Below are positions 28,475 through 64,000 of a stretch of 64,000 nt of DNA, piece by piece. The notes below the pieces were generated by a model that saw nothing but the letters and a program-made list of their open reading frames with translations, searched no databases and was not told the DNA's origin. Each line of letters begins with the position of its first letter. Within the stretch, counting starts at the first letter, position 1. Origin of the DNA: Catajapyx aquilonaris (lineage: Eukaryota); the NCBI GenBank assembly GCA_000934665.2, contig KZ538106.1:1-64000 (forward strand), in the 5' to 3' direction. The translations under genes were made by a program, and so were the position numbers.

Positions 28475-31400
28475 ATGGAGAATCGGGGCTTTGAATGTTC
28501 GGGTAAGTGTATGACACTTTTGTATTGTATGTAGTCTGCTGTCACGCATGTGGAACAGAATTTATAATGAGGGGTATTCGCCTACTGCAATATTGTGAGT
28601 TGTCCTTGAATATCTTCTCATTTCCAGTTTTGTGCTTTTTCACTTTCGGGCCTATTACGATTACGATAAAAATGTATGAAATTTACAGTACAGCCTGTCT
28701 GTAGCTTTACCTTGATGTAGCGAAAATTTGACGACTCCGGATTTTTTGCGGTTGTAGGAATTTTGTTGGAGGACTTTGGGGAAACTCGTCAATGCGCCTT
28801 AAATTATTTTCCAATGTTAGTACAGTAAAGTATTGTCCGATATAATATTGGATACGTGTCGGTTAAGGAAATGTTTCGCTCATAGTTTCATATATTGTAT
28901 CAGGTTACTGCACCCTTCGCATACACTGAGAGGTGATAATACACACTATCTACAGTAGCGTATGTTGTTATATGCCATGTCTCCAGGTCTTGCTTAGGAA
29001 TATAAAATCCTTCCAATTTGCCAGCTTTATTTACTGAATCGAAGGCCGTAATATAAAAACATCTTATTGCACTGTTTTATGGTGTGTTAAATACATTGTA
29101 TTGCATTTTAATTACTTTATAAGCTGAGTGTGAGTATGTACAAAATGATTAACTAAGAAAATTGCACCTGTCATATCTTTTTGGCGGGAAGTAATGTCTT
29201 ATCGGCACCGGGCCATGCATTTGGCGGGTTCATGATGCAATCTGTATTTACTATGTAGTAGGCCTACGCAATTCCTGCTGGCGGTTGACTTTACGCAAGA
29301 GATAGCTTGGCGATAGCGGCTGCAGAATAAGCTTCAGGAATGATTGAGCGCAGCTGTCATTGCTTTAAAAAGCTTCAGTAATCCCCTAATCATTTCTAAA
29401 ATTACATACCTTCGCCAACACTGTAATGATAAATAATTAAACGCAGGGAGAAATTAATTATGCGCGGAGATCAGCATCTTGTACACTCCTGTAACGCATG
29501 GATCTGCTGAGTAATGGGAGTTGCATAAGGAATAAACGCTATCACAGGTCACGTCCACATTTTTAAACCAATAATAACAACGTGATTAAGAGAAACTATT
29601 TTGCATTATTTTGGCTGCTTAACATAATAAGGTATTTTGAAACCTTCGAGAATGCTTGCTGAGTATGCATAAGAATGTCCTAATTGAAATGTCACCAACG
29701 TCTTAAACATAAAACACTGCAATGTTTAAAATTGCTAATCAAAAGTACACGACTGACTGAAAACTTCGCTTAAACCAAGAATTCGACCCCTGGTTCACCC
29801 TTTGAATAGTCATGTGTACGTAATGAGAAAGCCTTCATAAATTATATTCTCTCTTGGCTTTTACTCTTCTTTAGCAGGCCTTTTGCATAACTATATCCAC
29901 TTATATTCTCTAATAACGACCAGCTGTTCCTCGTTTCAGGCGAAGCAGAAACTACCCGACACCTGAATAGTTCTAAAGTGAATGGAAAGCAAAAAAACAT
30001 TCCTGATACAAATGGAACAACAGAAGCAAGAGATAAAAACGACAATGTCGTCCAGCTTAAAAAAGAGCTAGGGCTTTTCAGCGGAATTGCTCTGATAGTT
30101 GGGAGTATGATTGGTATGTCTAAGCAACATTACTTGACCCCCCATTTTCCTCTCCGTAATTCCCAACACCCAGAATGTGTTTTCCCTCTTGTTTTTATAG
30201 GTTCTGGAATATTCGTCTCTCCAGCAGATCTTTTGAGCCAAACAAATTCCGTTGGCCTGTCTCTGGTTATCTGGGCGGCATGTGGAGTATTATCAGCATT
30301 AGGTAAATACTGCTGCTAAATCTGGTTTTCGTATTATAACTAGTGCACGTTCTTTCAGGTGCGATAGCCTATATCGAGTTGGGCACAGTGGTTGAATCAT
30401 CAGGAGCTGAATATGCATATCTGTTGGCAGCCCTTGGCCCCATCCCAGCCTTTCTCTTCGCGTGGGTATGCACCCTCATCCTGAAGCCAGCCCTGGTTGC
30501 TGTCATATGCCTGGCTTTTGCGGAGTATGTGGTCAACTCAGTCACAGGAGACGAGGCACCTTATTACGCAGTCAGGCTGGTTACAGCAGCCACCATATGT
30601 AAGGATGGTCAATTAAACTACAGGAAGTTTAGTAATCCTGAAAATGTTTGTGCATATTTCTGCAGTGTTAATAGCCTTCATCAACTGCGTGAGTGTCAGC
30701 CTGGCTGCTAAAGTGCAGAATCTGACCACAGTAGCCAAGCTGGTGGCCATTGGCATCATCGTGGGTTGTGGGTTCTACCAGTTGGCGCAAGGAAACACGG
30801 AGCATTTGAGCAGGGGGTTCGAAGGAAGTACCACGTCTCCTGGAGTCATTGCCACGGCCTTCTACAGCGGCCTCTGGGCCTACGATGGATGGTCAGTATT
30901 GAATGAATGACCAAAATTACTGTAGAGTGTTACATCATTCCAATGCACTCATTTTGTTTGTCGTTCTTACAGGAACAGCTTGAACTTTGTCACAGAGGAG
31001 ATTAAAAATCCGTATAGGTAAGTGGGTGTCTGGAGTTTGGCGCCAAGTTTGCACTGCACTCAAACAAACAAAGAATAGTATTTACGAATCGCGTAAAGCA
31101 AACATTATTGACATGATTGTGTTATTATGTTTTCCAATAAATGTGTGGCAACGAATGCTAACGGCGACGTTCTAGACATTTCCAAAAATGTAACGCCTAT
31201 ACTTGAAATGTCAGTTCAGCCGGCCTTGACTCTCTTAATTTCTCACTTTAGGCTATATCAAATATTTAAAACCTCCGTAAAATCACTTAATTGCAGGAAC
31301 CTACCGCTGGCCATATTAATTGCGCTTCCTCTAGTCACCGTCTGCTACTTGTTAGTCAACATTGCCTACCTCACCGTTTTGTCTCCTGAAGAAATGATCG

Positions 31401-32447
31401 CATCTCGTGCTGTGGCTTACGTGAGTAATCATCTCTGCTACACACTTGATATCAAGTTAGATAACCAGCCGGTATAACCAGCAGCTGAATCGATCTGAAA
31501 TAATAAATCTCAAAATGAAAAAAAAAAAACTATATTGTATCATAACATCGACCAACTGTATCAATTCTCAGGATTTTGGAAATCGAATTCTGGGTCCAGC
31601 TGCATTTCTGATGCCTCTGGCAGTGGCTTTGTCTACATTTGGTGCTGCAAATGGAGCTCTTTTCGCCTCGGGAAGGTAAATTAAAATTCCTTACAACACA
31701 CAAATATTTAAAAATTATAGGGTACCACACGTACCATTATTACGTGGGAAATTATTATCCTTGCAGGGTACCCTACGCAGCCAGCAAAGAAGGCCACTTG
31801 ATGCAGTTCCTTTCGTATATTGATATCAAGAGGTTGACGCCTTCTCCAAGCATCATTACCAATGTAAGTTTAATGACATCGACCCTTTTGTTGCTGACTC
31901 TAATGATCTGTTCTTATATTTCAGACTTTAGTGTCTCTTATCATGGTGATTCCTGGGGATATCTCATCATTGATTAACTTATTCAACTTCACTGCTTGGA
32001 TGGTTTATGGTGCAGCAATGGTGTCACTCATTATTCTGAGGTACAAAAGGAAAGATGCCTTTAGACCTTTCAAGGTGCGTAACAACGAAAGCGAATTCCC
32101 CGGATCCAGCTGAATCCAACTATTTGTATTGCAGGTCCCTATTGTCATTCCAGTAGCAGTTTTTCTAATATCAATATATCTGGTGCTGGCACCAATAATT
32201 GACGACCCTAGGATTGAATACCTCTACGTCGTTGGATTCATTTTACTAGGAGCTGTTTTCTACTTAATATTTGTTCATTTCAAGTTTTCCCTACCAGGAG
32301 TTGGTACGTATGTTTTAAAATATGTCACCTAAAGTTACATACAACATAGCAAGAGCTAAATTTCTTTTTCTTCCAGATACCTTCACAAAAGTTGTACAGC
32401 TTGCATTGAACGTCGTTCCTCCGAAATCAGAAGATCAAATTATGTAG
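28475..32447 (+). CDS. SLC7 L-type amino acid transporter light chain, b(0,+)AT/SLC7A9-like; paralog A, 12 exons, ~509 aa
   Basis: Exons 28475-28502, 29940-30113, 30201-30302, 30359-30598, 30666-30891, 30973-31017, 31297-31420, 31572-31675, 31767-31863, 31925-32074, 32135-32303, 32377-32447 join in frame (1530 nt). Motifs [47 protein letters not shown] at 32740. Confidence 0.95.
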
Positions 32448-33433
32448 ACTTTTCATTCAAAGCCTGCATACTACAGTACTGCACATACAGTACAGAAAGT
32501 ATTTCACTGATGCTTGAATGAAGGCAGGCGCAACCAAGCGGGCACCATTGAAACCTGGGGGGATTGTCCACTAGACCCACCAGATGGGGGTCGATATCAA
32601 TAGCACTTACAGACAACAGTGTTGCAAATATTTGCAACATGTGCCGAGGGATGTTCAAATAAAGCCCGGAATCACGTTCGTCGGACTGGTGTAAATAGTG
32701 CGAAGTGCGAACTATCAAGTGCTACTTAAACCACCTGTAAATAAAATGTGTTATGTTTGTTACAACTGCTTACTGTTTCATTACAGCAAGGATTATTATA
32801 AATCTGTCTCTCTGCTACATTTAGCTTTTAATTTATTACTTTTTTAGATAAAAAGAGGATCATGTTTTAGTGAGGGAAAGTGCCAGTAACACTCTGGGCT
32901 ATATAACAGTGACAGAAATAATAAATCTCAAGTTCTGGTCAATATTATAACTCTTGCTTATTGGGATATAGCCTAATAGCCATGCGTCCTATTTATGGAC
33001 GATAAGCAGACTAATGTGGATGCTAATGACCCCTGAGTTGCACGCTATTGACAAGTGAATCATGCTTCTTAAGACTCAAATACTTCACAAAAATGATTAG
33101 CAGATATCTGATCAACGTGCACAGAGTGATTGACCAGATACAGATCCAATAGCGATTTTCGACCAATCAGCTGACCGCTGTCACATTTTCCTTTAAAAAA
33201 AAGTGCCGAAAGGAGGTACAATATCTGCTTGCCCTGCTGACCTTCCAATTTTATCTTGTGGCACCTTGCCCACTCAGCCTTGTTTTCAAGAGGAAGAATA
33301 GAAAGAAGCAGGTAGGCCTACAGTTCACACCAGAAAACCTGCGCAACGCATGAGATCTTCCATCACATTGGTGTGGATGAGCCATTAGATAACTCCCTCA
33401 CTGTATACCTTTTAAAGTTAACGCCTTCATAGT

Positions 33434-36400
33434 ATGAACCCCTCGGAACACCTAGGTATGTATGCACCCAATTTTTTAAGTAATATTTTTTGCGAGCATG
33501 TCTGTACGGTCAGTTGTGAACTTACAAATGACCCTGGTAGGCAAATACGATTGCGATTACGGGGCTTGGGGTCAAAAACCACTTCTGTCCACTTCTTATT
33601 TGATTGACCCTGGTCTTCTGTGGCAAAAAAAATGGAATCAATTCGATTAAAAAGCCGTTTGGAGGGCCAGGCTTCTCATTGACGGATAAGAGTGACAGCT
33701 GGCAAGTAACTGGTATTCCGGATTAACTTCGTGTTACTCATTTCTGTGTCCTATGCTTGTGACACACACGGGCTTTTTTCGGCTAATACCATCCTGGTAT
33801 TAGCCTCTCTGTACACATCAGTTGCTTTGCATTATTGCGAAGGTGAGCGAAGGTATTAGTATGGTTGAGATATCCATGGGCGAGAGGCAGAATCTGTTAG
33901 GCAGCTCACGTCGCAAGAATGGAGTCAGGATATACACTAAAGGTGAGTGCAATTCGCGCAAAGACACGTGCGATGGAGCCGGTGGTTTCATTCAAAAACG
34001 TGTAATTAGTGTGCTCGGCATGGGTGACGAAGGGTCTTCGTGTGCATGTCTGATAGACTCTAATCTATAGCCAAGGCCGGAGTTCCCCAGCTTGTTTGAT
34101 AATGTAGTTCAAAAATCCACTCACAACCGCCTTCGGTTAGTTTGACGACTCTGTGATACAATGAATACCATGCATATGGGCAGTGCATGTGCTTTATACG
34201 TCTTGGGCACATGGTTTAATCATGTGGAGGATTGGCGTAATAATATGTAGGCCAAGATGTAGGCTACTGTGCTGCCTGGTTCATACGCCTTCTAAACAAA
34301 CCAAGCTGTCCCGTGTATTATGATATCACCTTTTTATGAAACACATGCTTGTATAATATGACCTTGCTTTGACACAATATCAAGATGATGGGCAATACAA
34401 ACGGCATTAGTAACGTGACACTGAAGTCATAATTAGATATTGAGCAACTTCATTTTGGTACCTACTCATTTGCTGTTCATGTATTTTGTGGGGGCACTAA
34501 TTTAATATATGAACAGTCATTCAGAGATGTACTATATCAAAAAAGGTTTCGGCCAGTCTTAAGGCCTGTTTCCACCGGCATAGTTTTTGAGCACAAAAAG
34601 AAAGGCACAAAAATGGAACACAAAATCAAACAGTTTGGAATTATTCCAAAGTACAAAATTTTAAACTTTTCACAAAATAATTGTGTCAGGCACAAAATGG
34701 AAATACGAGATGGTCAACCGTGGTGGACTTATAGGAATTATTGTCTAGTGATAATTCAAGCACAATTGACGGGTAAATTAAGCTAAACGATTTTAGGACG
34801 GGGGTTCAGTTTAAATAAAATACATTCGGAACTTTGGGTGCTCCCTTCCGAGCGCTCATTTTTGTTTCTTTTTGTGAAAAGAACAAAAATTGTCCTGGTT
34901 GGAACAGGTGTTCATTTGTGCTGCACGAAAATCTTCAAGGAAACAAAATTATTCTGGCATAAATTATATCCGGAACAAAAACTATGCCGGGAAACAGGCC
35001 TTTATCCTGTTTACATTAACCCATTACATTACATTAGAGATTAGACCAAGGTAAAGTCTGGGGAAAACCTACTGTAGCCTATTCTCCCGAGTGATGATGG
35101 TTGCGTATCTCCAGGATACGCTTGGCAGTAACTTTTATAACATAGGCTTACAGTAAATATTTGTGTAGTTAGATCTATCTGGCGTGGAAGGTCTAACACC
35201 CTCATTCCCTCATTACTTGTTTCATAATTCATGAATGGATTCACTGCAGCGTGTCAAAAAATAATTAGCGAGGTTTTCCATAATGAAACTTCGTTCACTA
35301 ATATATTGTAAACATCGTAACAAACTGACGCAGGCATCCGCAGAAGAACAACATAAACGCATAATTATAATTTCAGATGCAGAGTCAAGTATCTCCACAA
35401 TCACTGAGGTTCATGGCAAGAAGAAATCCGAAAAAAACACTCCCGTGGCCCTCAGGAGGCAGGTGGGCCTCTTCAGCGGGGTGGCCATCACCTTGGGAAC
35501 CATCATCGGTATGGCAATAATTCTCTCAATAATCCTCAAAGCTTGTTACTCTTCTACTTTGTATATCCGGTGGCAGGATCCGGCATCTTCGTATCTCCGT
35601 CCAATGTCCTGGTCAGAAGCGGTTCAGTCGGCGCCTGCTTGGTCATCTGGCTCGCATGTGGCCTTATCTCGCTCGTATGTAAGTCTGCTCCTGGCTCACG
35701 CACCCACCCACCCCCAATGCATCCAGTCAATGTGGTACTGGCACAAATGTGCATCTGGACCTAACTGATGGCCTCCACTCCACTGCGCAAACAATCGGCT
35801 TGAAAAATTCCGATTAAAAGACGATTATAAATCATTTTGAAAAGTTCCAAATTTTAACAACTCACTAGCCGTTTTTGTTGCTGACATTAAAAGTCACAGT
35901 TGTTGTAAAGATGACGTCAGTATCCAAGTTACAATGCTGCAATTTATGAAGCGTCGCATACCGTACAAAAGTATACGGATCGAAAGAAGTTACGTGATCT
36001 AGGCCACTTGTGTTGCTCTCTGTCACGCGCCATCTCTGGTCGAGTGAGTCAACACCGACCGGGTTGTGTCATAGCACATTGACGCAAAAACCCCTTTTGA
36101 AGTCCTATAGATCCTTACGAATGCGGAAATGCGGGGGGGATATTTTCAGCTGCGATGGCGTTCGCTGAATTGGGCACCCTGATCCCTCGTTCCGGAGGGG
36201 ACTACACCTATCTCCTGGCTGGGTTCGGGGATCTGCACCCCAAGTGGGGGCCTCTCCCTGCATTCCTGTACGCCTGGTGCAATCTCCTGGTCTTCCGGCC
36301 AGTTGCACAAGCCATAGTTTGCCTCAGTTTCTCACAGTACGTCACAGCATCATTCATCCAGGGGAAGGATCCCACTTGGATCCTCTGGGGACAAAAGATG

Positions 36401-38951
36401 CTGGCAGTATTCGCCATGTGTGAGCCACCTTTTGCATTCGCAGCATACCATGATGGCATTACAGAGGTATTTTTACATTTCAGGGACTATCACGCTCATC
36501 AACGGAACTAGCGTGAAGTTGGCCACCCGTCTGCAGGATGTCATTATGGTGGCCAAACTAGGGGCTATAGCTGTTATTGTGGTGATGGGATTGTATAAAA
36601 TAGGGGAAGGGAGCACACAGTATTTGGAGACTGGGTTCCAGGGAGACATATCGGCCGGAAACATCGCTATTGCCTGCTATCAAGGTCTATGGGCCTACGA
36701 CGGATGGTGAGAAATTTTTTTGTTTTCTCTATAGGAGGTGGTCCCAATTTTGCAGTCAAGTTGTGATCAATTGTTGGCATTGCAGAGCCATATAGCAATG
36801 GGGTGGAAGGGAAGTCGACAAAACATTTTACACGTCCCGTTTCTTCCTTAGGAATATGATCAACTACGTGACGGAAGAACTGAAAAATCCGCAAAGGTCG
36901 AGTATTGCTTATGTACATGGTTCAGGTGTCACTTTTTTCTGTCTCTATTTACACATAACCCCATGACCCCATCTTATCAGCAGTCTCAAAACCCCATTCA
37001 TAATATCATATCAGGCTATTTTTACATGCACATTTCTGTATTTTTACACCCGCTGCACTCCCTCGCAATATGACGCTATTGCACTCTATCTATATCTGTA
37101 AACATGCGTAATGATTTTTGCCAACAGGAATCTTCCTATGGTTTTGGGGCTGTCAATGTTGGCAGTCACCCTTTCATTTGTTCTCATAAATGTGGCTTAC
37201 CTGGCAGTACTGTCGCCTCAGGAAATGGCCGACAGTCATCAAGCAGTGGCCGAGGTGACCCTCTTTGCTTACATACACATTTGGAATAACTCGCCATGTG
37301 TCACTCATAATTTGCTTTGATTTCGAGTACAGGCATTTGCAGAGAAAGTTATGGGAAAGGCCAGTTTCCTTATGCCAGTGGCTGTTGCCATCGTTACTTT
37401 TGGGTGCGCCTTGTCTGGCCAGTTTGCCGGAGCCAGGTAACCTCATTAATTTTACACGTGGAAAATAATAATTTTAAAAGCCATACTTGAACGCAAATGT
37501 GAGCTCCCCGCAGGCATAATTGAATTTCAGTTACAACATTGCATCCTGGCGCACTTAAGGCGGACTCTTCCATGCAAAATGTAATAAATCAGCAGTGATG
37601 TTACATTTCCTGGGACAGTTTATTAGTAGGGAGATCCGGGGAGATCATCTTTGCGTTCATGTAAACATAGTGCATGAAACGACATGAAACTTTCTTTGAC
37701 GACATTGTCCGGCTAATAATTGTTTGTTGGCAAAAATTGACAGGTTGAATTACGTGGTGAGCCGAGAAGGCCACCTGGTAGAATTCCTCTCATTCATCCA
37801 TGTGAAAAGACTGACGCCGCTTCCGGCCATATTGTTCGCAGTAAGTCTCTCCTATATACTCTGCATAATTTATTAATCATTACCGGGCCTGCAGGCTACT
37901 TTAAATGGGATGATCCAAAGTCCCTGTTCGTTTAATTTAGCTATTCCGGCAGTAATCCGTTAATTTTTTGTTTCTGAACAGACACTTTAATTGGATATCA
38001 AAATATGACCTGCCAGTATAATATAAAATGAAATCGTTTACTTTAGGCAAGAGGCGATGATTTGTTAAGCCAATAATAAGCGTGCAAATATTTCGTTTCA
38101 GTGCTCCGTCAACACTATATTTATTGCAGTAGGAAACATTACTTCCCTGATAGATTTCTTCGGATTCACAGTCTGGATCTTTTATGCCGGGTGCATGGTG
38201 GCATTGTTGGTGATGCGAGTCACCAAGAAAAACTGCCACCGTACATATAAGGTGAGATCAGCTGAAATATTCTCATAGTGAAGCAAGTTCCTGATTCCAT
38301 TTGTGTGTAGGTGAACATACTGGTGCCCTTCACGGTGATTCTCATCGCCATATTCCTGGTCCTCGTCCCTCTCGTCACTCAGCCAAAGATGGAGTATCTC
38401 TACACTGTGGTGTTCATTTTAATAGGTACTGTCGTGTACAACGTGTTCATTCTCAAGGAAAAACGCTTCAAGTGGACTGGTAAGTTGGTGTCATCATGGC
38501 TCCAAGCAGTCAAAGGTGTTCTTTCTCCATATGTCGAGCCCTGATAATACTGTAGTCGTGCCGAAGAGGGCTTCTAGCACATTTTTTGGTCTGGCAAAAA
38601 CTGAGATAACAGCTGCAACAGTGGCTCTGAGTTTCTTGTTAATTCACACGTGTTATAGGAAAGTTACAAAACTTTTGCCTAACTTTGTAAACATCGACAA
38701 TGGGAGAGAAGCTGTTTCGTGTTATGGTGTTATTGATCCAACCAGAGAGTGGTACTGACGTCACAAGCATCTAATTATCAGTGTCGTTAATGATACTGTC
38801 ACTGTTGCCCATTGTGACATCACTACTATGCTCTTGCTGAAGTAGGAGATAGTAGCCTACCTAAATGTTTTTCTTTTCAGAATCAATTACGCACATATCT
38901 CAAAAGCTCCTGCTAGTCATCGCTAGCGAAAAGGCTGTGGAAGAAGAATGA
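33434..38951 (+). CDS. SLC7 light chain, b(0,+)AT-like; divergent paralog B, 12 exons, ~503 aa, first coding exon uncertain
   Basis: First exon is either 33434-33455 or 33876-33942. Then 35377-35508, 35577-35678, 36150-36419, 36484-36706, 36852-36896, 37128-37254, 37333-37436, 37744-37840, 38102-38251, 38311-38479, 38881-38951. Motifs [53 protein letters not shown] at 38964. Confidence 0.93.
34562..35001. mobile_element. PIF/Harbinger-type MITE in intron 1 of SLC7 paralog B, TTA TSD
   Basis: TIRs AGGCCTGTTTCC(AC)CGGCATAGTTTTTG / CAAAAACTATGCCGGGAAACAGGCCT. TTA at 34559-34561 and 35002-35004. Internal repeated CACAAAA motifs. Confidence 0.85.
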
Positions 38952-40539
38952 CATAAGTGGAATAATAAACACATAATTCATGTCGCAGTTAACTCTCTCT
39001 TTACCCGTCGCTTTTTACAACTGTTTCTTCCTTATCTCCAACCCTTTTTAGCACCTACGCCGGTAGCAAAACGACGTAGTTGTTGACGTCAATAACGTCG
39101 ATCTGGAGGGAGCGTGGGTGGCATATTGGCGAGTTACTATTCCCTGTGACTCCCTAAAAGTTGGGTATGTCATTGCTCATACAGTATAGCCTACAATTTA
39201 CTTCACGAGAATCAATATCATCCTGTAAATCTGAATTAGCCCGGCACACTTGGGAGGCGGCCTGGAAATAACCCACACATTTCAGGCCATAGTTTGACGT
39301 TCATCTCAAAATATTATTTAACCCAAAGAAAAATTGCAAAGTTGCGACGAAATGGCACCAAACTAACTTATAAATAGATTAAGAGACGAATAAATTTTAA
39401 ATGCAGAATAACGGTATGCAGGCTCATTCCTGACTTAATCGTAGGCTCGATAAATTCTGTGATTTTTAAAGCGATAAATTCCTGATTACGTCACAAGTGG
39501 AAAATATAGCATATTACCTCTATGATGCTGCCAAACAGCAGGCCTTGTTGACAATGCACAGTTGCACACCCACACATTGAAGCGGTTTTCTATTTTCTCA
39601 AAATAAGCTGCGCAAAATTTAAGTCGGCCTGTAGGTCGTAAACAAATGCAAACTGACATGAAGGTGCACTTGAATGTTTTTATGTTGCAACGACCGTTGC
39701 AGTGTGAACAGGAGAAATATATTTTTATATTGTTAAAAGAAACTATCTTTCTGTTGTTTCAAGAGAGTCAATAACTATACATTAAATATGCCGCTATACA
39801 AATACAATATTATTGTTGTTAACATAATTGGTGTGGATAATAGAAATAAAACGTATGGATAGTCATATGCATTGCAATTAGTAACAATAATAACTGTGCG
39901 CCTTTGATCTTAAAATGCTTCGCTTCTCTGAACTTGTTATATATTATGTCAACTCTTTGTTGCTTTAACGAATTGCGGTCTGCACGCCTGATGCCTTTCA
40001 ATCAGGTCAAGTATAGACAAACATGAAGCAACGCGACTCATTTGCCCATTGTTTTCATTTCCATGCTGAATATCGATTCATTACTTGCCCGACTTGCAAT
40101 TTATGCAAGTGCGGGGATCACCCATCGGATAAATACTACGTAAACAAGCGCCCATGAAGTATCTCATGGATTTTTTAAAAAGTGCACTTTGGACGAATAA
40201 ATGATGCGAAATTCAGTTTATGCTTTTTAAAGTGGTTTGTTTAAAACTGTAAGTGGAATTTCCAACATTCTTTGTAGGCAAAAAGGTTGAAGCAGAAAGA
40301 GTCGATATGTTATGTATGTTCTTCCATCTCTGTCAATATTACCACAACCTTATCTGCTATAGTGAATGTGAATCGCCAAAATCGGTGAAACACGTGGTGA
40401 CAAAAGGTAGGGCGAAAAAATAATGTCTCTGATGTGACCCCACCCTTTGATGAAAAGCTAGACGTTAGTGGCGCCCATTGTGACCTACAAGTTCGTCTGG
40501 TGTGGGCTGGAAATATTTTCATCCTGCCTTCCAGTAGTG

Positions 40540-42420
40540 ATGATTACTTTCAAAGTCCAGACATACTTTTGCATCTATTTGGTGACGAAATTACACGCCA
40601 TGGTTCCAATGTCACGAAATAATGAAGTTTCCTTAAGAGAAAATGTGGAGCTGGATATCTTAGGCAACAACATTTGCCACTTCATAATGAAATATGAATA
40701 CAAGTGCGGCATACTGTTAGCCGACGATTACGTCGTCATTCCTGACATTATACACCAACATTTCTCTCGGCTGTACGATGCCAGAGATGTCAGTTACGTG
40801 CGAATGAGTCTGCCACCAAACAAGAACTGTGACTCTTCAGTTTTCAACTTCAACGTAAGAAACATGAAGTGGAATTGCTTTCTGACCGTAATCGTCAGTA
40901 GTGAAGCGCAATTCCCTCATTTGGTCAACTGTCTTACTGAGAAGAACTGGACGTGGCCTGCAAGAGATCGGACAGTCGTATGGAGTCGAGATGGATCGTC
41001 CCTCTCACTGCTGAGGTCAGAGGTCATGAAGGATTTCAAAGTAAGAGCAGCTGCTTATGTCAAGTGGAACGCAACGGATCACATGCAAGTCGACATAGCT
41101 TGCGGAAACTGCTTTGCACATGGGAAACATTGGTCAGAGGTGCCTGTGAATAACCTCATGGAAATGATGGAATTCTTTAGCGTGTTGGTCCACGGCCAGT
41201 TCAAAATCAAGACCTTTGGAGGCGGGGAGGTCAATATCTCTGACCCTCATTTTTGTCACGAATATGCTGCGACAGGCAGTCATCGTGACAAGCTCTACAA
41301 CATCGTTGACCTCATGTCCGAGGTAATGGATTTCACCTGGAAGAGCGTCGGGCCAAAGAGCCACTACACAGGCCACGAGTTGGACAACGGAACGTGGGTC
41401 GGAATCATAGGCGACATTGGCAACGAAGTTACATTCACTTCTCCGTACATGCCCGTCACGAGAGAGCGGCTCGACTTTTTGGAATTTGCATTCCCCATCA
41501 CAATGGACCGCCTGACCTTCAAAACTAGGAGACCCGATGTGACCTTTTCTGCCACGGCCGTCCTTCACCCTTTCTGTTCCCGTGTCTGGATCCTGCTCGG
41601 TGTCGCCTGCATCCTCACAGCTTTTGTCTTCAAGTTCATCTCCAAGACTCCTACAACCCTCCTTGAAGCAGCCCAACTCTTGATCCAATCGGCCATCGAC
41701 CAACCGACCACTCACCCGTCCTCAAACCCAGCCCGGGTCACCTTTCTCTCCTGGGTCATCTTCAGCTACGGGATGGGAATGCTCTACAAGAGCAAGCTGG
41801 TCGAATTCCTCACCACCCCAACCTTCGACCCGGCCATAAATCGGTTCGAAACCCTGGCCCAGACCCCTGGTTTCCAATGGGGCACTGACCCGTGGACCTT
41901 CGACGAGCTGGCCACCGTCGGGTCCGAGCTGGTCACCATCATCGAGAAAGTTCAAGTAGAGGCTGACATGATGACCTGCATGACCAAGGCTGCTGAGGGC
42001 AACTACGCCTGCATCACCCTGGAAAAGCAGCTCCCTTGGTACGTCGGCAGTCACTTCTACGACAGCTGCGGACGGAGCCTGCTTCACACAGCCACGGACG
42101 ACACCTTCTACGTGGCGATCGGGATGCCCCTCAAGAAAGGGTCGCTGTACCGGTCATCCCTGCAGAGGCTGGTCAGCGCCATGGTGGAAGCAGGGCTGGT
42201 CAGGAAGTGGGCGAGGGATGACAAGTGTCACGAGGTGTTCAAAGGAATAGAGATGGCCAATCAAGCCAGGGGCACGTCCTTCTACGGCTGCTTGTATGCC
42301 ACGTCCACACACCGAATCAATATGTGGCACATGACCAGTCCATTGTGGATTCTGTCCATCGGATTCTTCCTGTCTTTCCTGCTCTTTCTGGGCGAAATAT
42401 TTGTGGCCAAGGCACGATAG
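40540..42420 (+). CDS. Divergent ionotropic receptor (iGluR-related chemoreceptor), intronless CDS, ~626 aa
   Basis: Single long ORF, first ATG at 40540. S1: NGTWVGIIGDI and VTRERLDFLEFAFP. M1: LHPFCSRVWILLG. M3: RVTFLSWVIFSYGMGMLYKSKLVEFLTTP then AINRFETLA. S2: MVEAGLVRKW. M4: PLWILSIGFFLSFLLFLGEI. No large ATD. AATAAA at 42505. Confidence 0.92.
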   Translation: MITFKVQTYFCIYLVTKLHAMVPMSRNNEVSLRENVELDILGNNICHFIMKYEYKCGILLADDYVVIPDIIHQHFSRLYDARDVSYVRMSLPPNKNCDSSVFNFNVRNMKWNCFLTVIVSSEAQFPHLVNCLTEKNWTWPARDRTVVWSRDGSSLSLLRSEVMKDFKVRAAAYVKWNATDHMQVDIACGNCFAHGKHWSEVPVNNLMEMMEFFSVLVHGQFKIKTFGGGEVNISDPHFCHEYAATGSHRDKLYNIVDLMSEVMDFTWKSVGPKSHYTGHELDNGTWVGIIGDIGNEVTFTSPYMPVTRERLDFLEFAFPITMDRLTFKTRRPDVTFSATAVLHPFCSRVWILLGVACILTAFVFKFISKTPTTLLEAAQLLIQSAIDQPTTHPSSNPARVTFLSWVIFSYGMGMLYKSKLVEFLTTPTFDPAINRFETLAQTPGFQWGTDPWTFDELATVGSELVTIIEKVQVEADMMTCMTKAAEGNYACITLEKQLPWYVGSHFYDSCGRSLLHTATDDTFYVAIGMPLKKGSLYRSSLQRLVSAMVEAGLVRKWARDDKCHEVFKGIEMANQARGTSFYGCLYATSTHRINMWHMTSPLWILSIGFFLSFLLFLGEIFVAKAR

Positions 42421-42954
42421 ATAGCGTCGTTACTTGCACACACATTGCCCTGTTATACTCTGCACGTAGTATCACAGTAATGATGTAAACGTGTACTGTA
42501 ATTAAATAAACCTGCTGATTAAGGAGTAGTACGATTGTATCCTGGACATACCCGCAACCCAAGTGCCCCCGCTGCTCTCCTGGTTGCATAATCTGCAGGA
42601 AAAAAATATTGCATATTTATTCCCCGAAAGTCAACGGCCCATGAATGATGCCTTCCAGACTTTGAACCCGCATGTGCCGCATACCCCGACGCAATGCGTA
42701 CGGCGCACCTGTGGATGCAAAATCGAGTCTGGATGAATCCAGCGACCCCTTAGTTCCAGGCCCTAATATAGACGTGTGGTGTCCCGGGTGCAAGTAACCT
42801 CGTTCAGGGACAGAGGGTGGTGGTTTTGGCGCCTGCGCTGTGTGTACGCGCCAACTGAGAGCGACGGCGGCGTCGGCATCGGCGGCGGCCAACCTCAGAA
42901 GGACATGCCTCGGCGTCCGAGTCGCTCCTTTCCATCCTTCGGCTTTGCGGAGTC

Positions 42955-48900: not shown

Positions 48901-51900
48901 GGTCAGCCGATGCTCCGTCGCGTCGTCGGTGGCTAACAATCACAGCTTAGGATGATCCTGCAAGAGTAATGAAATGAACATGTTAAATATATATCAACTT
49001 CATCGATATACGGGATTACCTCCGCATAAAATACACTGTATGCACTGGACCTTGCGTGTCACTGCATTGTATAACGCTCATGACCAAATAGTTTTGTAAC
49101 AAGACCAATAAAATGACAGTATATTCTCAGCACTATACAAGATGAGACATGCAATTTATACCACCTCAGGTCTGGTTGCGGCGAGGAAAAAACATCTCGT
49201 TTGAGCTAGTAGTATTTCTGGGAAGCGGTACAACCCGCCCTTTAATTATTAGAATGAAACTTAAATCTAGTGAGTCAGTTCCTCTGTTCATTATGCTTGA
49301 GCACCCCGAATAATCGGAACGGATGGCAACCTTAGTGATAATCTCGGGTAATCCTATAAACATGATAAGAGTCAGTGTGTGTTGAATCTGAATTATAAAT
49401 TGCTTCTTTTCAGTGCTAGTCTCTCCGATGTTATATAAATAAAACCCTCCCTTCACTCTGCTACACGCTGGAGTATGGCCAGAGAGTGGCAAAAAAGTAG
49501 CGTGCTTCTTTAAAGTAACTTTGGTACTTCACAAACCTGCTTTGCGTGTTAAGCGCAGTCGGACTGTTAAACTAAACTTTAACTCGTCGCCCACCATTCT
49601 CATTCCATGAATACCATTTACACCACTCAGTGAATCACCACACCGTGTGGCATTGCAAGTGGGCCGATTCATAATTACTTCATTATCAAATAAAAATGAC
49701 CATGGTCCGCACACGAATTTTCAATTTCGAATATGTCAATTAACACACCCAATAGCTGCGGTTTCCCCACAACCCACCAAAAATCCCGCCTTACTGGCTG
49801 TAAATCCAATTACCCTAAATAAAATAATCACGATCATAATTGACAACAACATGCTGGCCTTATTACGCGTCTAAGTGCAACAAGCTAAAGGCCATATACC
49901 CCCGAGGCTGTTCACATAACATACCGCATAAACACCCACCCACACATTGTATCTGTGCGGCAATGGTCAATCTGTATTCCTTCCGCGCAAGTGCAGAGTA
50001 TTCCCGACACTATTGCAATCTCTCTTTTCTTGGCATGCTGGTTGTAATATACAGTAACGGGGCAATATTGTGCCCGCGCCAGAGGGGGCCGTACGAAGGG
50101 TTGTCCGCCTAATATACACACGCGCACGCTGAAACACTGTAAGGGAGAAGACCTCGAAGCAGCCGGATTGTGCAGTTACGCTGATTCGATTAGCTCACGT
50201 TATTATTTTTTTTGCTAATAACTGTATAAGTGAAGCCTGCACGTGCGGTAATTCAGACGGGACGCATACTTTGCAGGATAAATATATGGGTGTGTAGCAT
50301 GTGAGTACTGGTAGTGTTCGGTTGATAACAATGGTTTGGATTGTTGTGTTGCAGGCAAGCGCAATGGGAGCGTCCTCGGAGTCAAATGCGTCGTCGTCAA
50401 CGGCCTCGGGCAAGTGGGTGCCCTGGCAGACGAAGAAGGCAGCACAGGCAGCAACGGCTCCGGATCGTTCTCAGACGACGGTGTCACTCCGGGAACCAAC
50501 CTGGAGGGGTCGGACGCAACTTCGGATGACGCTGTTAACCTCAAGAGACGGGTGGGACTCCTCAGTGGGGTGGCTTTAATCGTCGGAACCATGATCGGTG
50601 AGCAAAACCGAACATTTTCCTGGTCCTGGCACCAGATTCCTCACATGAGTCAGTGGCCAACAGTTGACAGGGGCCATGACCCTTGTGAGGCATCCAATTT
50701 GGCCCCGAGACTCGACCGAAAAACCTATACAGAGCCGGCGAGAGTGCAGGCACGTTCAGTACCTACCCGCCCTTGAAATATCCCAACCTTCTGCATAGCT
50801 GGGGCCTAAAAATAAAGTGGCCCCAAGGAAACAAAATCTGACCACTACAAATGCCTATTGCACGCTCTAAAATAAGACTCCTTCTGTAAACAGCAACACC
50901 CCTTTTGTTCGGATGTGTGGGCAGTGAATCACGATGTACCGGAAGCTATTAAACTCCAACCGATCATTTGCATTGTCTTTCAGGATCAGGTATCTTTGTG
51001 TCCCCTTCAGACCTGCTGGCACGCACGCATTCCGTGGGCCTCAGTCTCGTCATCTGGGTGGCTTCCGGTTTCCTGTCAATGTTAGGTATGTCCTACACAA
51101 TTATACCTAGAGGATGTTCATCCAGCTAAATGGATGAATGCATTTCAGGAGCGTTAGCTTACGCAGAGTTAGGCACGATGAACGTAAGCGCTGGCGGCGA
51201 ATACGCGTACTTCCTGGAGGCGTTCGGACCGCTGCCGGCCTTCCTGTTCTCGTGGGTGTCCACGCTGGTGCTGAAACCATCGCAGTTGGCCATCGTCTGT
51301 CTCACCTTCTCCAAGTACGCCGTGGAAGCCCTCGCAGGAGAGTGCGGGCCTCCGGACGTGCTGGTGCAAATAGTGGCAGCCCTCACCATCGGTACGGGGA
51401 CGCCGTCGAGGGAGGGCGCCACCAGGATACCTAACTGACACGTCTGTTTCTCGTTCCAGTCGTCATCTTGTTCATCAACTGTTATAGCGTCAACCTGGCG
51501 ACGGGAGTCCAAAATGCGTTCACGGCTGCCAAGCTGGTGGCCATCTCCATCGTGGTTGCAGGAGGAATGTACTTTCTGAGTGCGGGACACACTGAGCACT
51601 TGAGCCGAGGATTCCAAGATACATCCACTTCCATTGGCAATATAGCCACTGCCTTTTACAGCGGAATGTGGGCTTACGACGGATGGTCAGTATACATAAC
51701 TTATGCAGCTTTGATTCGTGCCCATTTACATGTGCTTCCTTTCGCAGGAATACCTTGAATTATGTTACGGAAGAGATGAAAAATCCGCATGAGTAAGTAT
51801 TAGGGAGAGGTGTTCGTGTCATTAAGAGTGGTATCGGTACTGCTTTAGTATGTCTTCGGCATAACAGACTATATAGCAATGATTTAGTGTCGTTGCACCC

Positions 51901-54900
51901 TTCCTGATGCCAATGTAGCATCATGTGATACAACCCATTTGAAAGAAGCCGTGCCAGAGAATATTGCACTGTCCAAGCTGCAGTTTCCAAATGCAATCAC
52001 AAAATCTTTTATCACGTGGAAAAGTGCCCATAAAACATCCACCAGCGCTTATATTGTGAAAGCTATCCGTTAATCAGAATACGAATTACTGCTGCTCATT
52101 GACAAAAATTCGGCGAATGGAGTAGATAAATTTAATGGTGCTTATGATATGGGCATTTCTGCAACCGAATCATTATGGCTGCGTATTGCAGCAGAAATTA
52201 TTGCTATTATTCGACTAATACTAAAATATAAATCTGTAATTATTACACTAGTACCGTGCCATTCTGACCTTTGCGTGACACTGGTACCTGCAACTGCTTT
52301 TCTAATTTCAGGAATCTTCCACGATCCATTATGATTGGAATTCCACTAGTGACGATCTGCTATTTGCTCATGAACATTTCATATTTGGCAGTCATGTCAC
52401 CAGCTGAGATGATTGCGTCAGAGGCTGTGGCAGTGGTGAGTACTCGACGCATTCGTGATTTGCATTTTATTTACGCAGAGATTCATTGGCCAGGAAAGCA
52501 TGCACCAATCATTTAGTTTCCAAATTGATACGCAGGGGCATTATTTTGACTGGTAAGCCATGTGTGAATGTATGAGGGAACGACCATGCTGAAACCAGCA
52601 AGGCTTTTCCTCCATGTCAAAGAATGCTTTTTAATTAATGATCATTAAACACATATTTCCTTGATTAATTGATCAAATCTGACACATATTATTAGCAAAG
52701 AGTAAATGTGGCACTAACTAAGCCGTTTCCGAAACGAGTGCATGATGCACCACTAATGATGTGTTGACACTGTCTGGTATGGCACTAAACGCCTGGGCTA
52801 GATTAAATGTGCACCAAATCTGTCTGTTAAATTCACTCTTAAAGGTCTGGAAAATTGTCCATTTTTCGTAAAAATTGGGTCTTTGATAATTGTGCAAACT
52901 GTGGAACTTCCACTGTCTTTTTTGACTGTCTTTAAAGCGCGTGAATAATATCGTGTACTGTTGCACCTGTAGAGTTGAGACCTCAAAATGTTGGCCCTTT
53001 AGGTATGTGACAGAATGGGATTACGCCTATTCACTAGTTGACCTAGAGTGCTCCTATTTTTTGCACGAAGGCGGCCTGATTACTGCTCAGCCATGATTCA
53101 GCTGTGATGTTTACTCCTTGTTTTGCTTCTTAGTCCTGTACATATACATTATGCCGCGCTTTTTTCGACGCCCAACTCCCGCTGGACCGATCTATATTCT
53201 GCATATACTGCAGCTAACCATACCTCTTGTCACGTTCGCTCATGAGGCAGTACATGATGGATAGGCCTAATCCGCGTTTATCTTCTGCATATTAACACTT
53301 TTACGTCTATATACTCCCACACCTTAACGGCTAATTTCTTGTAGACAATAGACGCAAGTCACTTTGTAAATATATTAACTCCCACTACACATTTGAGTTG
53401 GCAAAATTTTTAATGGTGTGCTTGAGTAGTCAATCATGCCAGATTCACTATACCAAAAATGGATCAGGTAGGTACAGGTCGTATTAGGAGAGATCGAAGT
53501 CCAATTAAAACGAGAGATGAATATATCGTAAGGGTTAATCACATTGGAAATTTTTAGATCATGGAAAAATATGCATTTTATAGCTGAAATATAAAATATT
53601 GAGATGTTTATTAGTAGAAGATAGAGCCATGTTGGCAGTTGGAAGACTTACGTACCATAAAATGTGAATTTCTTCTCAAATGAAAAGCAATAAAAAAATC
53701 AGTTTTACACTGCTGCAGATATTTGCTTTTATGGCAGTAAGTCCTTCAATTGCCGGCGCGTTGGGATACGCTTGAACTCAATGCGCACGTAACATCAATG
53801 AAATCTTCGCATGCACACAGTAACGATATAATCCTGAAAAAAATAGCGTTCATTGTTATCTGAACTAGTAACTATTATGATTTTAAAAAACTTCATTGGT
53901 GTTGTAAATTGGCTGTACCGAACAAATTAATGATCAGAGAGAGTGGCGGTGGTGAGTGAAGGTAATTAATGAGTGATATATGCCACTGGTGAAGTGATCG
54001 CTAAGGATTTGAGAAAAGAGTCTACTTTATATTGTGATGAACCTGCTGCGAGCACAGCTACACCCGATCCAGGAAGAGGAGGCGCCAGTTTCTATTGGGA
54101 GCATGTCCTTTTGTAGGTGTAGGTGAGCCCAAGGAGCAATGTGTGTGTGGCGAGACCTGCTCTCCGCTACATGTAGCTCCTTATGTGAAGAGGCAAAAGG
54201 GCACTGACGTACGAGTGAGTGCCCGGGTCACCTCTCCGGGGTGGGTATGGTCCCATGGGTCGGTCCAATTGGCCCATCTAAGCCTTGATGCTCTTGTGTG
54301 AATCACTATATCTATCAGATTGTCATCCTATTTGTCCGTCACCTCTTTTTATTTTTTAAAAATTCTTCAGTACTTCCTATGTGTCTACACCCTCAGCTAT
54401 ATGTCTCACCTGATCCAACATACGTTGACCTTCCGATTCACACAGCAGACACAAGGCAGTGACCTCCCTGCCTGATCCTCCCCAGTCGCTTCAGAGAATT
54501 TCACTTTTCCGATACCGAGCCCACAATTTTGAATTCAATATCATTGCACATTTGATGAGATGGGCAACAAAAAAAGATAAATTCTCTGCAGGCGTTCCCT
54601 TCAAGGGTTGGTCCTCTCCATCCTTCCCTGTAATTTGCATGTCCCCGAAAAAAAGCGTCACTCGATCCACAAAATAGGAAGCAAATGCAGTTACTTTTTT
54701 GTTTTCTTTTCATTTTCTGTCAGAGACGTTTCTCTGTTTCTTTTGTCCGTGTGCCTTATGGCTAGTGAAAGACAAATGCCTTAGCGAGACTGAAAACTTT
54801 AGAGAGACCTGAAAGTTTAAAGCTGACTGCAACTGGGTAATGGACTCAAGGCTAGTTGTTACTAAATCATGAATAAATTGCGCCGTCAATTTGGATCACA

Positions 54901-56575
54901 TAACCTGACACCTCTTTAAAAATTTTATTTCGCTCCTAATCTGGTCTAGTAAATATAAAATACACCAAGTCCATATCCCAGCATATGCCTCCAATGCTAT
55001 AAAGTGAAAAACCTTTGATACTTGTTAAACTGCATGGCAGAGCGAGATGTCTTGCAAGGCATCTCAACTGCGATGACATTCTCAAAAGAAACAATTTTTA
55101 AAAAATTCAATAATAATAAAAAGAATGGCACCGCATGAGTTCTAGCCTCAATTCCGTACGTTTCATATGCGTTGAATTTGCTTTTCAGACATTCGGTTAT
55201 CGGGTTTTGGGCGTGATGGCTTGGTTGATGCCTCTGTCAGTCACCATTTCCACCTTTGGTTCAGCCAACGGAACTCTTTTTACTGCAGGAAGGTAAGGAC
55301 CTATCTGGCTCTCTCTATTTTTAGGAGCTCGACTAACTCGCGCAATAACGTGAGCAAGAATTTATCAGCCATTGGGAAATAATATTATTTCATCGACATT
55401 ACTTTCTCCCCCTTCTGCCCTTTGGACCTGTGGACTTAAGCAGTGTACCCACCTTATATGCAAATGCTACTATCAAACGGTTGCACCTTTTTACCTACCT
55501 GTATATTGACACACCTCTAATCCACAGGGCACCGGGCCAAGGCTTGAATCACCTAATGAACAGGCACTAAAACACGCGTCCAACCGAACTACTCCTCTGT
55601 AGAACAGACACTGATCACGATACACCGTCTCTATATGCAGTCATTAGACAGAAAATTCTGTGCATCAATTTCCTGAAATCAAATTGGGCTTCTTGTCACA
55701 CGTAAAGATAAGGCACATGGCGTGGAATAAGCATACATGGAACAGCTCTCGACAACTCACATTGCACTGATTTCATGATTTAATTAATGGAAAGAAGAAC
55801 GTGGTCTGAGCTGATTATTACTTTTATCTCTCTTCCAATGATGCAGATTATGCTTCGCAGCGAGTCGGGAGGGCCACTTGATAGACATCCTATCATATGT
55901 TCACATTCACCGTTACACCCCAGCTCCAGCTCTTATTTTCCACGTAAGTCAACAAGTGTGTGTAAACACAATCTATAGCGAGTAAACTATAAAAAAACGA
56001 TTTTGATTCCGTTCCAGGCTGTCGTCGCTATCGCTATGGTGTTTTCCGGAAACATTGCGTCGCTTATCGACTTCTTCAGTTTCACTTCTTGGATTGCTTA
56101 CAGCGGGGCCATGATGTCCCTCATCGTCATGAGACGCACCAAAAAGCACGCCACACGACCATATAAGGTATATAAAAAAAAAGCAAATGCATCAAAATAA
56201 TGGCACACTATTTTGTCTCTGTATGGTACTTCGGAAGCATCTTCATTTTGTGGTTCCTTTTCCAGGTTCCCTTAGCCATCCCCGTGTTCGTGCTGGTGGT
56301 GTGCATGTATCTCATCATAGCTCCAATCCTTGAGAATCCCCAGATCGAGTATCTGTATGCGTCGCTCTTCATTGTGGCCGGACTTCTGGTTTACATTCCC
56401 TTCATGCACTATCGCTTCCAGTTTTTCTGCATGGGTAAGTCACATCACCTGCTGCCTTCATTTGCATCCACCTAATTTGACCTTTGTCCTTCCAGACAAA
56501 GTGACCGTCTTCTTCCAGTTGCTCCTCCAAGTGGCGCCTCCATCTGCGGACGTGTCCCTCCCAGCATGCCCCTGA
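42955..56575 (+). CDS. SLC7 light chain, b(0,+)AT-like; conserved paralog C resembling Drosophila CG9413/sobremesa-type proteins, 12 exons, ~537 aa
   Basis: Exons 42955-42985 (inferred, [10 protein letters not shown]), 50355-50597, 50984-51085, 51149-51391, 51460-51685, 51748-51792, 52312-52435, 55189-55292, 55847-55943, 56018-56167, 56266-56434, 56496-56575 join in frame (1614 nt). Motifs [61 protein letters not shown]. The orthology is from recalled similarity, not a search. Confidence 0.94.
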
Positions 56576-56585
56576 CTTATTGAAA

Positions 56586-56606
56586 CAACAACAACAACAA
56601 CAACAA
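56586..56606. repeat. Short (CAA)n repeat in the 3' UTR of SLC7 paralog C
   Basis: About 7 CAA units just after the stop codon. Confidence 0.8.
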
Positions 56607-61980: not shown

Positions 61981-63988
61981 ATGGAGAATCGGGCATATGC
62001 CGCCTCCGGTAAGTTTCAATTCAATTTTTCCTATCGAACATATCCTTCAATGGAAAGTCATCTCAGTTTAAACACATTTTAAAACAGTAATTTTTAAAAG
62101 TGGACAATCATCTCAACTCCCAGCAACTGGATTAACTTTTGGTCTTGAACATTGATGTCATAGCTGATGTTGACCCAGCCATTGTAACGTCAGTAATGCC
62201 GACAGCTCAATGCACTCCAATAAATCTACCCGCAGGCAGTGAAAGACAACTGGACGAAGCAAGCAAATCTCCGACTTCACAGGTCAGCGACAAGGATGAC
62301 ACGAAAGATGGGGACAGCCTGCGTCTGAAGAGAGAAGTTGGTCTCTCCAGCGGGATAGCACTTATAGTTGGCACCATGATCGGTAAGCCTGCTTCAAAAT
62401 TGGCCTGCTCTTTATGCACAGCCAAAGGCAACTTCCTTTCATGTCAGATGCCAAATGAGTAGCCTCGAGCAGCCTTCATATTTCTGCTGTCAGATCACCA
62501 TTGTAACTGATCTCAAAACCTAAACCTGTCTAGGTTCTGGCATCTTCGTATCTCCTGGCGAGCTGCTGATGCGAACTGGTTCCGTGGGCCTCTCACTGGT
62601 TATCTGGGCCGCTTGCGGAGTCCTATCAACCTTAGGTGAGACCAGCATCGGACTGCGTACAGCAATCATTATGCGCGTAACGCCGACTGATTTCCCTCAG
62701 GATCAATGGCGTACATCGAACTTGGGACTGTGGTGGCGGCCTCTGGTGGTGAATATTCATACCTGCTGGCTGCACTGGGACCTCTTCCGGCCTTCCTCTT
62801 CGCCTGGGTGTCCACATTCGTGCTCAAACCGTCTTCCACGGCCATCATTTGCTTGTCATTTGCCGAGTACGCCGTGGAATCAGTGCACGAAGGATACCAG
62901 ACACCACCTGTAGCCGTCAAATTAATAGCTGCTTGCGCCATTCGTACGTCTTTTGGATCACCCTGTGCAATCAAAATGATGACACTTGGCAATATTACTA
63001 AAGAATAAATTTTGTCATTTCAGTGCTGATTACGTATGTGAATTGCGCGAGCGTGAAGGTGGCCACCAAAGTGCAGACAGTGTTCACGGCTGCGAAACTC
63101 CTGGCCATTGCAGTAATCGTGGTGATGGGAGTCTACTTGATTTCCCAAGGTGATTTGGAGGTATTGTATTGTAATCGGTGAAACGTCAAAGCCCGGGCTG
63201 GCGCAACAATGAGTGCGACCTTGGCTATTTTCAGGGAGGACGGAGCACTTGTCCACTGGGTTTAAGGGCAGTACCAATTCCTTTGGAGATGTGGCCACGG
63301 CCTTTTACAGCGGACTCTGGGCATACGATGGATGGTCTAAAAATTCCCCGTATTCATTTCTGTTTACAAAGTAACAAAACGACTCATTAACCGCACTGAA
63401 ATATTGCAGGAACAATCTCAACTACGTAACGGAAGAAATTAAAAATCCGTACAGGTAAAGGCCAACCAAATGAGGACTGGCTACTCCAGGCCAATGTCCA
63501 ATTTGTGGATAATTTCAGGAACCTTCCACTGGCTATACTCATTGGGCTTCCTCTAGTGACCGCGTGCTACCTGCTGGTCAACGTCTCCTATTTGACGGCT
63601 ATGACACCGGACGAGGTCATGAGCTCTCCAGCAGTAGCTGTCGTAAGTTTATAGCCGGCAGGAAGACAAGGCAACATTTTCATACTTGGCATATACTTTT
63701 TTCTTGCAGACTTTTGCGAGGCGCGTGTTGGGTCCTGTGGCATTCATGATGCCCATTTTTGTAGCCATGTCTACCTTCGGAGCAGCCAATGGCTCTCAGT
63801 TCACTGCTGGAAGGTTACCAGTAACCTTTTCTGCTTGATTAGCTTCTTGGTTTCATTTGACTTACTTTGAAAAAACAATTTATCGTTTCAGAATAACTTA
63901 CGTAGCAAGTCGACAGGGACACCTGGTTGACGTCTTGTCGTACATTGACGTCAAAAGTTACACACCTTCTCCTGCCCTTATTTTTAAT
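61981..63988 (+). CDS. SLC7 light chain, b(0,+)AT-like; paralog D, 3' part runs beyond the window end
   Basis: Exons 61981-62008, 62236-62382, 62534-62635, 62701-62943, 63024-63149, 63235-63334, 63410-63454, 63519-63642, 63710-63813, 63892-63988. Motifs [38 protein letters not shown]. Confidence 0.93.
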
Positions 63989-64000
63989 GTGCGTATACTG

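Follow-up and report, generated by a model that had tools for sequence, protein, structure and literature searches.

In human b(0,+)AT (SLC7A9), which is the light chain of system b0,+ and belongs to the heteromeric amino acid transporter (HAT) class, Cys144 bridges to Cys114 of the heavy chain rBAT (PMC8478756), and in Drosophila the Sobremesa isoform Sbm-PA (CG9413) is described as co-localised with the SLC3 heavy chain CD98hc and as forming with it a heterodimer that is sensitive to dithiothreitol (PMC6167638). Light chains that naturally lack the cysteine are known from Caenorhabditis elegans, where AAT-1 to AAT-3 pair with ATGP-2 through a disulfide, whereas AAT-4 to AAT-9, the members least similar to the mammalian HATs, lack the cysteine and are described as having no interaction with ATGP-1 or ATGP-2 (PMC6284198). 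One of the latter, AAT-6, has been reported to interact with the scaffold NRFL-1 (PMC3419730). Here we describe an array of four tandem SLC7 genes, paralogs A, B, C, and D, in a 64,000-nucleotide stretch of the genome of Catajapyx aquilonaris (positions 1 to 64,000 of contig KZ538106.1, assembly GCA_000934665.2; the window), in which, as in the nematode family, LAT-type light chains without the loop cysteine (A, B, and D) are found beside one that bears it (C). On the comparisons given below, the array is an old tandem set of sobremesa/b(0,+)AT-type SLC7 amino-acid exchanger genes that comprises a canonical copy, C, and three divergent copies maintained by selection. Among the results listed in our literature searches, none dealt with arthropod SLC7 light chains that lack the cysteine or are independent of a heavy chain.

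Using an insect b(0,+)AT1/sobremesa protein (P0008) as the tblastn query, we detected four collinear sets of exons on the forward strand within positions 29987-64000 and no further SLC7 copies in positions 1-29900 of the window. An earlier note on this DNA, made from the letters alone, had let the cluster begin at 28475, but we found no cluster coding between that position and approximately 29890. The introns of this eukaryotic DNA are short and of the GT-AG type, and the spliced models (Table 1) were obtained by enumerating every GT or GC donor and AG acceptor between adjacent matches and choosing the combination that gave an open frame and the best alignment with the reference; the last exon of A was identified by reading frames downstream. 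All four copies are SLC7 light chains of the sobremesa/b(0,+)AT type. The lengths of matching exons recur across the copies (102, 240-270, 223-226, 45, 124-127, 104, 97, 150, and 169 nucleotides (nt)), the intron phases are equal in all four, and GT...AG is found at every junction. Exon 3 measures 243 nt in both C and D, 240 nt in A, and 270 nt in B, where the surplus consists of a 7-residue insert between transmembrane helices (TM) 2 and 3 and two residues past the loop that joins TM3 and TM4. Further, D alone has an extra 85-nt intron (63150-63234) inside what is one undivided exon in A, B, and C, and its frame would break if this intron stayed unspliced, and B is without the last intron that splits the final two exons of A and C (B region 38252-38547). 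We found no frameshifts or in-frame stops over the 9-11 exons of each copy, despite 36-55% amino-acid divergence. Over their whole length, the spliced models of A, B, and C align with insect orthologues of 530 amino acids, and D aligns up to the window edge. The open frames and the motifs GSGIF, AKL, and WAYDGWN, which the earlier note had listed for all four copies, are present in all four spliced models, and the transporter core is kept in A, B, and D, with GSGIF in the unwound part of TM1, a b(0,+)AT-like GLWAYDGWN in TM6, and, in A and B, all 12 helices. The exon-3 translations matched AA_permease_2 (PF13520) with 31.6 (A), 40.0 (B), 30.5 (C), and 39.5 (D) bits against a cut-off of 27.

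Table 1. Features of the window, with positions counted from its first letter
Feature	Position	Strand	Details
Paralog A	29987-32447	+	11 exons detected; tblastn, splice enumeration
Paralog A, exons 1-6	29987-30113, 30201-30302, 30359-30598, 30666-30891, 30973-31017, 31297-31420	+	
Paralog A, exons 7-11	31572-31675, 31767-31863, 31925-32074, 32135-32303, 32377-32447	+	
Paralog A, TM3-TM4 loop	30523-30561	+	no Cys; 1 residue shorter than in C
Paralog B	35283-38547	+	10 exons, ATG at 35283; tblastn, splice enumeration
Paralog B, exons 1-5	35283-35508, 35577-35678, 36150-36419, 36484-36706, 36852-36896	+	
Paralog B, exons 6-10	37128-37254, 37333-37436, 37744-37840, 38102-38251, 38311-38547	+	
Paralog B, TM3-TM4 loop	36335-36373	+	Lys at Cys position
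Paralog C (sobremesa orthologue)	50492-56578	+	11 exons detected; tblastn, splice enumeration, trees
Paralog C, exons 1-6	50492-50597, 50984-51085, 51149-51391, 51460-51685, 51748-51792, 52312-52435	+	
Paralog C, exons 7-11	55189-55292, 55847-55943, 56018-56167, 56266-56434, 56496-56578	+	
Paralog C, conserved TM3-TM4 loop Cys codon	51343-51345	+	TGC
Paralog D	62196 to beyond 64000	+	9 visible exons, in-frame ATG at 62196; window end cuts gene
Paralog D, exons 1-5	62196-62382, 62534-62635, 62701-62943, 63024-63149, 63235-63334	+	
Paralog D, exons 6-9	63410-63454, 63519-63642, 63710-63813, 63892-64000	+	
Paralog D, Tyr codon at Cys position	62895-62897	+	TAC
MIP (aquaporin) Pfam match	6988-7380	+	E 4e-32
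MIP (aquaporin) Pfam match	18388-18876	+	E 7e-34
MIP (aquaporin) Pfam match	22112-22444	+	E 1e-7
MIP (aquaporin) Pfam match	25343-25765	+	E 1e-36
Uninterrupted open frame between B and C	40462-42420	+	652 codons; Lig_chan 20.9 bits, below 30.8 cut-off
Open frame	626-1285	+	219 codons; no Pfam match

Among solved structures, the best match of all four exon-3 translations was b(0,+)AT (E values of 1e-17 to 3e-24; 6li9, 6yup, and 7nf6, with rBAT as the partner), which exon 4 of A also matched (E 1.8e-17) and with which the copies have the TM6 sequence GLWAYDG in common. In the structure alignments, the loop cysteine of C falls on the Cys of 'yvgCkpp' in the human protein (6yup/6li9), whereas the same column, that of Cys144, holds Tyr in D, Lys in B, and in A a one-residue gap beside an Asp. 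The earlier note had assigned the disulfide cysteine to C, a Tyr in an exon of equal length to D, and loops without any Cys to A and B; each of these assignments held, with the A loop at 30523-30561 and the B loop at 36335-36373. The column was Cys in 120/120 sobremesa-type proteins among the matches listed. In a further set of 149 proteins (P0121-P0269), which combined 4 from a word-based search with exon 3 of D and 145 new ones from a profile search with an alignment of exon 3 of A, B, and D, and for which only the match columns were tallied, 132 had Cys, 15 had another residue or a gap, and 2 did not cover the column; two of the 15 have a Cys 1-3 residues away, possibly through alignment shifts, and one (P0124) is a distant protein. 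Other database proteins without the cysteine, from Orchesella cincta (ODN02262.1) and Procambarus clarkii (XP_045593137.1), belong to other SLC7 clades in the 23-row tree described below. We conclude that the absence of the cysteine from three of four neighbouring copies is real and unusual but not unique. As a separate observation, we note a sobremesa-like exon in metagenome fragments (P0149 and P0270) in which the loop lacks Cys and is one residue shorter ('DG-EAP'), as in A; its remainder is similar to the canonical gene, and this likeness suggests that loss of the cysteine recurs.

The earlier note had also raised the possibility that the disulfide forms through another extracellular cysteine. 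On an approximate 12-helix topology, C has exactly one cysteine in its predicted extracellular loops (EL), that of EL2, whereas the predicted extracellular loops of A and B, and those of D as far as it is visible, hold no substitute. Because A, B, and D have neither the loop cysteine nor a substitute, we conclude that they cannot be joined to an SLC3 heavy chain by the canonical disulfide. N-glycosylation sequons were considered as a sign of stand-alone, CAT-like trafficking and dropped as uninformative: the long extracellular loops contain none, and just two lie close to the outer face, namely NITS of B, in an EL5 of 4 residues, and NFTA of A, at a site assigned to TM10.

To place the copies, a tree of 23 rows was built with IQ-TREE under LG+C20, and a second tree, with the longest outgroups removed, was built from 17 rows. 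The identity between C and three insect orthologues is 70-74%, compared with 64% between A and D, 56-60% between either of these and C, and 45-49% between B and the others. In the 23-row tree, all four copies lie in a pancrustacean b(0,+)AT/sobremesa clade supported at 100/98, and in both trees C forms a clade with eight insect sequences, also at 100/98. Like Sbm and the insect proteins named 'b(0,+)-type amino acid transporter 1', with which it groups, C keeps the loop cysteine, and on this evidence it is the sobremesa orthologue; because Sbm-PA forms a heterodimer with CD98hc, we take C to be a conventional light chain. In contrast to Sbm, A, B, and D are without the cysteine for the bond to CD98hc, lie outside the clade of C and the insects, and have longer branches in the 23-row tree (D 0.54, A 0.81, and B 2.18, compared with 0.44 for C). 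By the same trees, A and D are sisters (97/95 with 23 rows and 98/93 with 17 rows) and B, which joins them at 86/85 in the 23-row tree and has an unstable placement, with its long branch, in the 17-row tree, is the most divergent copy. Constraining the four copies to one clade cost 18.6 log-likelihood units (approximately unbiased test, p=0.036, 17 rows); because the test group was named after the first tree had been seen and the branches are long, we take this result as no more than a hint of a duplication older than the split from insects. The three replacement states (gap/Asp, Lys, and Tyr) fit a single loss of the cysteine or repeated losses. The likeness to the nematode AATs is functional and structural only, as no nematode AAT is in the tree; the copies without the cysteine here lie inside the b(0,+)AT/sobremesa clade and in tandem with a canonical paralog.

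Pairwise Nei-Gojobori comparison of the copies gave proportions of synonymous differences of 0.71-0.79, which are saturated, and proportions of nonsynonymous differences of 0.23-0.36. The ratio of nonsynonymous to synonymous rates (dN/dS), where computable, ranged from 0.11 (A-D) to 0.18, values that are upper bounds only because the synonymous rate is saturated, and that lie far from the ratio near 1 which the earlier note had named as a refuting result. Further, identity by codon position followed the order 2>1>>3 in all six pairs. These two patterns, together with the unbroken frames and the canonical splice sites, show that A, B, and D have been under long purifying selection and are not drifting. 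Close orthologues of these copies were not found: the profile search with the exon-3 alignment gave 4497 matches at E<=0.001, and the best 150 of the 4497, which were those examined, reach no more than 63% identity to A (partial, 65 residues), 58% to D, and 51% to B. The word-based search with exon 3 of D gave four matches among longer proteins (the best 62% over 74% of the query, from Cyprideis, and 58%, from Pollicipes) and one, at 56%, among proteins near the query length.

We propose that no obligatory SLC3 partner would be needed for A, B, and D to reach their membrane and to exchange amino acids, and that they would work alone or with a helper outside the SLC3 family. The models for this proposal are AAT-9, which Veljkovic et al. 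reportedly found in 2004 to work alone in oocytes, and AAT-6 with its PDZ scaffold NRFL-1. Loss of the loop cysteine alone is weak evidence for SLC3 independence, and we put the proposal just short of an even chance; we favour it because the sole natural precedent points there and because light chains that use the partner otherwise show no variation at the cysteine. The suggestion of the earlier note, that the duplicates traffic alone, bind SLC3 non-covalently, or use another partner, spans all three options without choosing among them and is partly supported. A more specific version, in which A and D, and perhaps B, would represent an ancient pancrustacean lineage derived from b(0,+)AT/sobremesa that split from the canonical copy before the lineage of the window diverged from insects, became independent of SLC3 in convergence with AAT-4 to AAT-9, and was lost in insects, seems to us unlikely.

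The surfaces by which a light chain meets its heavy chain bear on this proposal. In LAT1-CD98hc there are four contact areas, TM1'-TM4, linker/EL2, EL4a, and EL3 (bioRxiv 10.1101/577551). As the reference, we used the 247 columns whose residue is conserved by 11 or more of 12 orthologues that bear the cysteine (C, eight insects, Pollicipes, Hyalella, and Owenia). Overall, 54/247 of these columns are changed in A, 80/247 in B, and 28 of the 191 covered in D. EL2 is changed at 4/5 columns in A (p=0.009), 3/5 in B (not significant), and 3/5 in D (p=0.023), on a test of only five columns whose p values are uncorrected for multiple tests and whose region boundaries follow the general LAT1/b(0,+)AT topology rather than a computed model. 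The corresponding counts for A, B, and D are 0/6, 3/6, and 0/6 in TM4, 0/6, 1/6, and 1/6 in EL3, and 5/15, 7/15, and 4/15 in EL4. The EL2 of HAT light chains is described as having a fixed length, flanking prolines, and an aromatic residue at position 3 (bioRxiv 10.1101/577551). The first of these prolines is absent from the sobremesa clade itself, and the length of the loop is altered in A and B. Because EL2 is altered well beyond the cysteine, the whole loop appears to have been released from constraint, which is not the case for the membrane-embedded contact helix, at least in A and D. A, B, and D all depart from the reference at nine of the 191 columns, among them the EL2 Cys, two EL4 residues (W to F), and the TM8 Cys. 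We also note, at residues 292, 294, and 319 of C, that the TM8 Cys ('RLCFAAS' in C) is replaced and that EL4 Trp has become Phe in A, B, and D alike; changes common to the three would fit their common descent.

Several points weigh against the proposed independence from SLC3. The conserved TM4 columns, which serve helix packing on the heavy-chain TM, are intact in A and D, those of EL3 are nearly so, and pooling the four interface regions gives none of the three copies a significant excess of change; the EL2 result carries the limits given with it. A also keeps VVPP at its C-terminus, similar to the VPP found in human b(0,+)AT, and the tail of C is VPP-like too; in the human protein this motif is reported to drive the traffic of the heterodimer from the endoplasmic reticulum (ER) to the Golgi (PMC8478756). 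The interface pattern and the VVPP tail are compatible both with a heavy chain held non-covalently and with one that has fallen out of use. The transport properties of LAT1 are the same with or without the C164-C109 disulfide (PMC6023973), and reduction with tris(2-carboxyethyl)phosphine leaves the equilibrium of the LAT1-4F2hc heterodimer with the super-dimer unchanged by mass photometry (PMC11065870). The models themselves add to these reservations: D is visible up to about residue 406 of the 530-residue reference, its last third lying outside the window, the first detected exons of A and C contain no ATG, so that these models begin downstream of the true 5' end, and the helix boundaries of the 12-helix core are taken from the LAT1/b(0,+)AT fold rather than computed.

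It is appreciably possible, although we lean to the other side, that A, B, and D instead pair non-covalently with SLC3/CD98hc through TM4-TM1' packing, EL3 and EL4 contacts, and the C-terminal tail, with the heavy chain still needed for exit from the ER. The mammalian results above, in which light chains work without the disulfide (PMC6023973) and the heterodimer equilibrium withstands reduction (PMC11065870), speak for such pairing, as do the position of EL2 as one of four parts of the interface (bioRxiv 10.1101/577551), the conserved TM4 and EL3 columns that remain intact in A and D (apart from the single EL3 change in D), and the VVPP tail of A. However, the invariance of the cysteine in the 120 listed sobremesa-type relatives indicates that selection strongly maintains the covalent link in any light chain that uses the heavy chain. 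Native mass spectrometry of reduced LAT1-4F2hc is described as yielding no intact heterodimer, and the authors propose that, in vivo, assembly or localisation may critically need the disulfide (PMC11065870). The erosion of EL2 past the cysteine and the changed loop length in A and B also argue against non-covalent pairing, as do the nematode AATs, the only natural light chains without the cysteine to have been studied, which are described as not using heavy chains (PMC6284198). The hLAT1 C164 and hCD98 C109 mutants and the reduced complexes resemble A, B, and D in having no intermolecular disulfide, and they keep their transport properties (PMC6023973), but they are made in the laboratory and the rest of their interface evolved for a heavy chain, whereas in A, B, and D the cysteine has been missing for long enough for synonymous saturation and change of the whole loop. 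When 4F2hc is absent, human LAT1 and LAT2 function in Pichia, whereas in mammalian cells they do not (PMC7589757).

The long branch of B and its changes at 80 of the conserved columns, and the nine columns altered in all three copies (TM8 Cys and the two EL4 residues among them), would also be in keeping with a changed role for the copies without the cysteine, which could act at an internal membrane or as sensors or regulators that need no surface delivery. We give this only a slim chance, since A, B, and D retain the substrate-site motifs of TM1 and TM6, no sequence feature indicates a particular compartment, and neither the A nor the B model has a canonical PDZ-type C-terminus. That one or more of A, B, and D is a duplicate without expression or one that died recently, in which loss of the cysteine is part of decay, is very improbable. 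The missing start codon in the first detected exon of A and the reliance of the D frame on the splicing of its own 85-nt intron could be read in this way, but the first detected exon of C is likewise without an ATG and the feature is therefore not specific to the copies that lack the cysteine, whereas the absence of frameshifts and in-frame stops, the canonical splice sites, and the dN/dS and codon-position patterns are typical of constrained genes. Independence from an obligatory SLC3 partner is our preferred, if tentative, reading of A, B, and D.

Elsewhere in the window, the MIP matches listed in Table 1 suggest that several tandem aquaporin-type genes seem to lie upstream of the transporter array on the same strand. 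The long open frame between B and C may be a divergent ionotropic-receptor-like gene. Table 1 also includes a shorter open frame near the start of the window.

What makes a light chain depend on SLC3 for exit from the ER is debated for LAT1 and b(0,+)AT (PMC11065870, PMC7589757), and a canonical gene beside three long-retained paralogs without the cysteine (A, C, and D being 56-64% identical to one another) provides a compact natural experiment on this question, in which chimeras of C with A or D could show where the determinants of dependence lie. Members that lack the cysteine are concealed by automatic names such as 'b(0,+)-type amino acid transporter 1-like'. Because light chains without the cysteine are known in nematodes and the disulfide is dispensable in vitro, the kind of transporter described here is already known; the finding overturns nothing and is of interest to specialists in the family. 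If the more specific version given above, of an ancient lineage lost in insects, is true, the dependence of LAT-type transporters on a heavy chain would have been shed repeatedly in animals, and the array would offer C and either A or D as a natural pair in which to map the features that tie a light chain to its chaperone.

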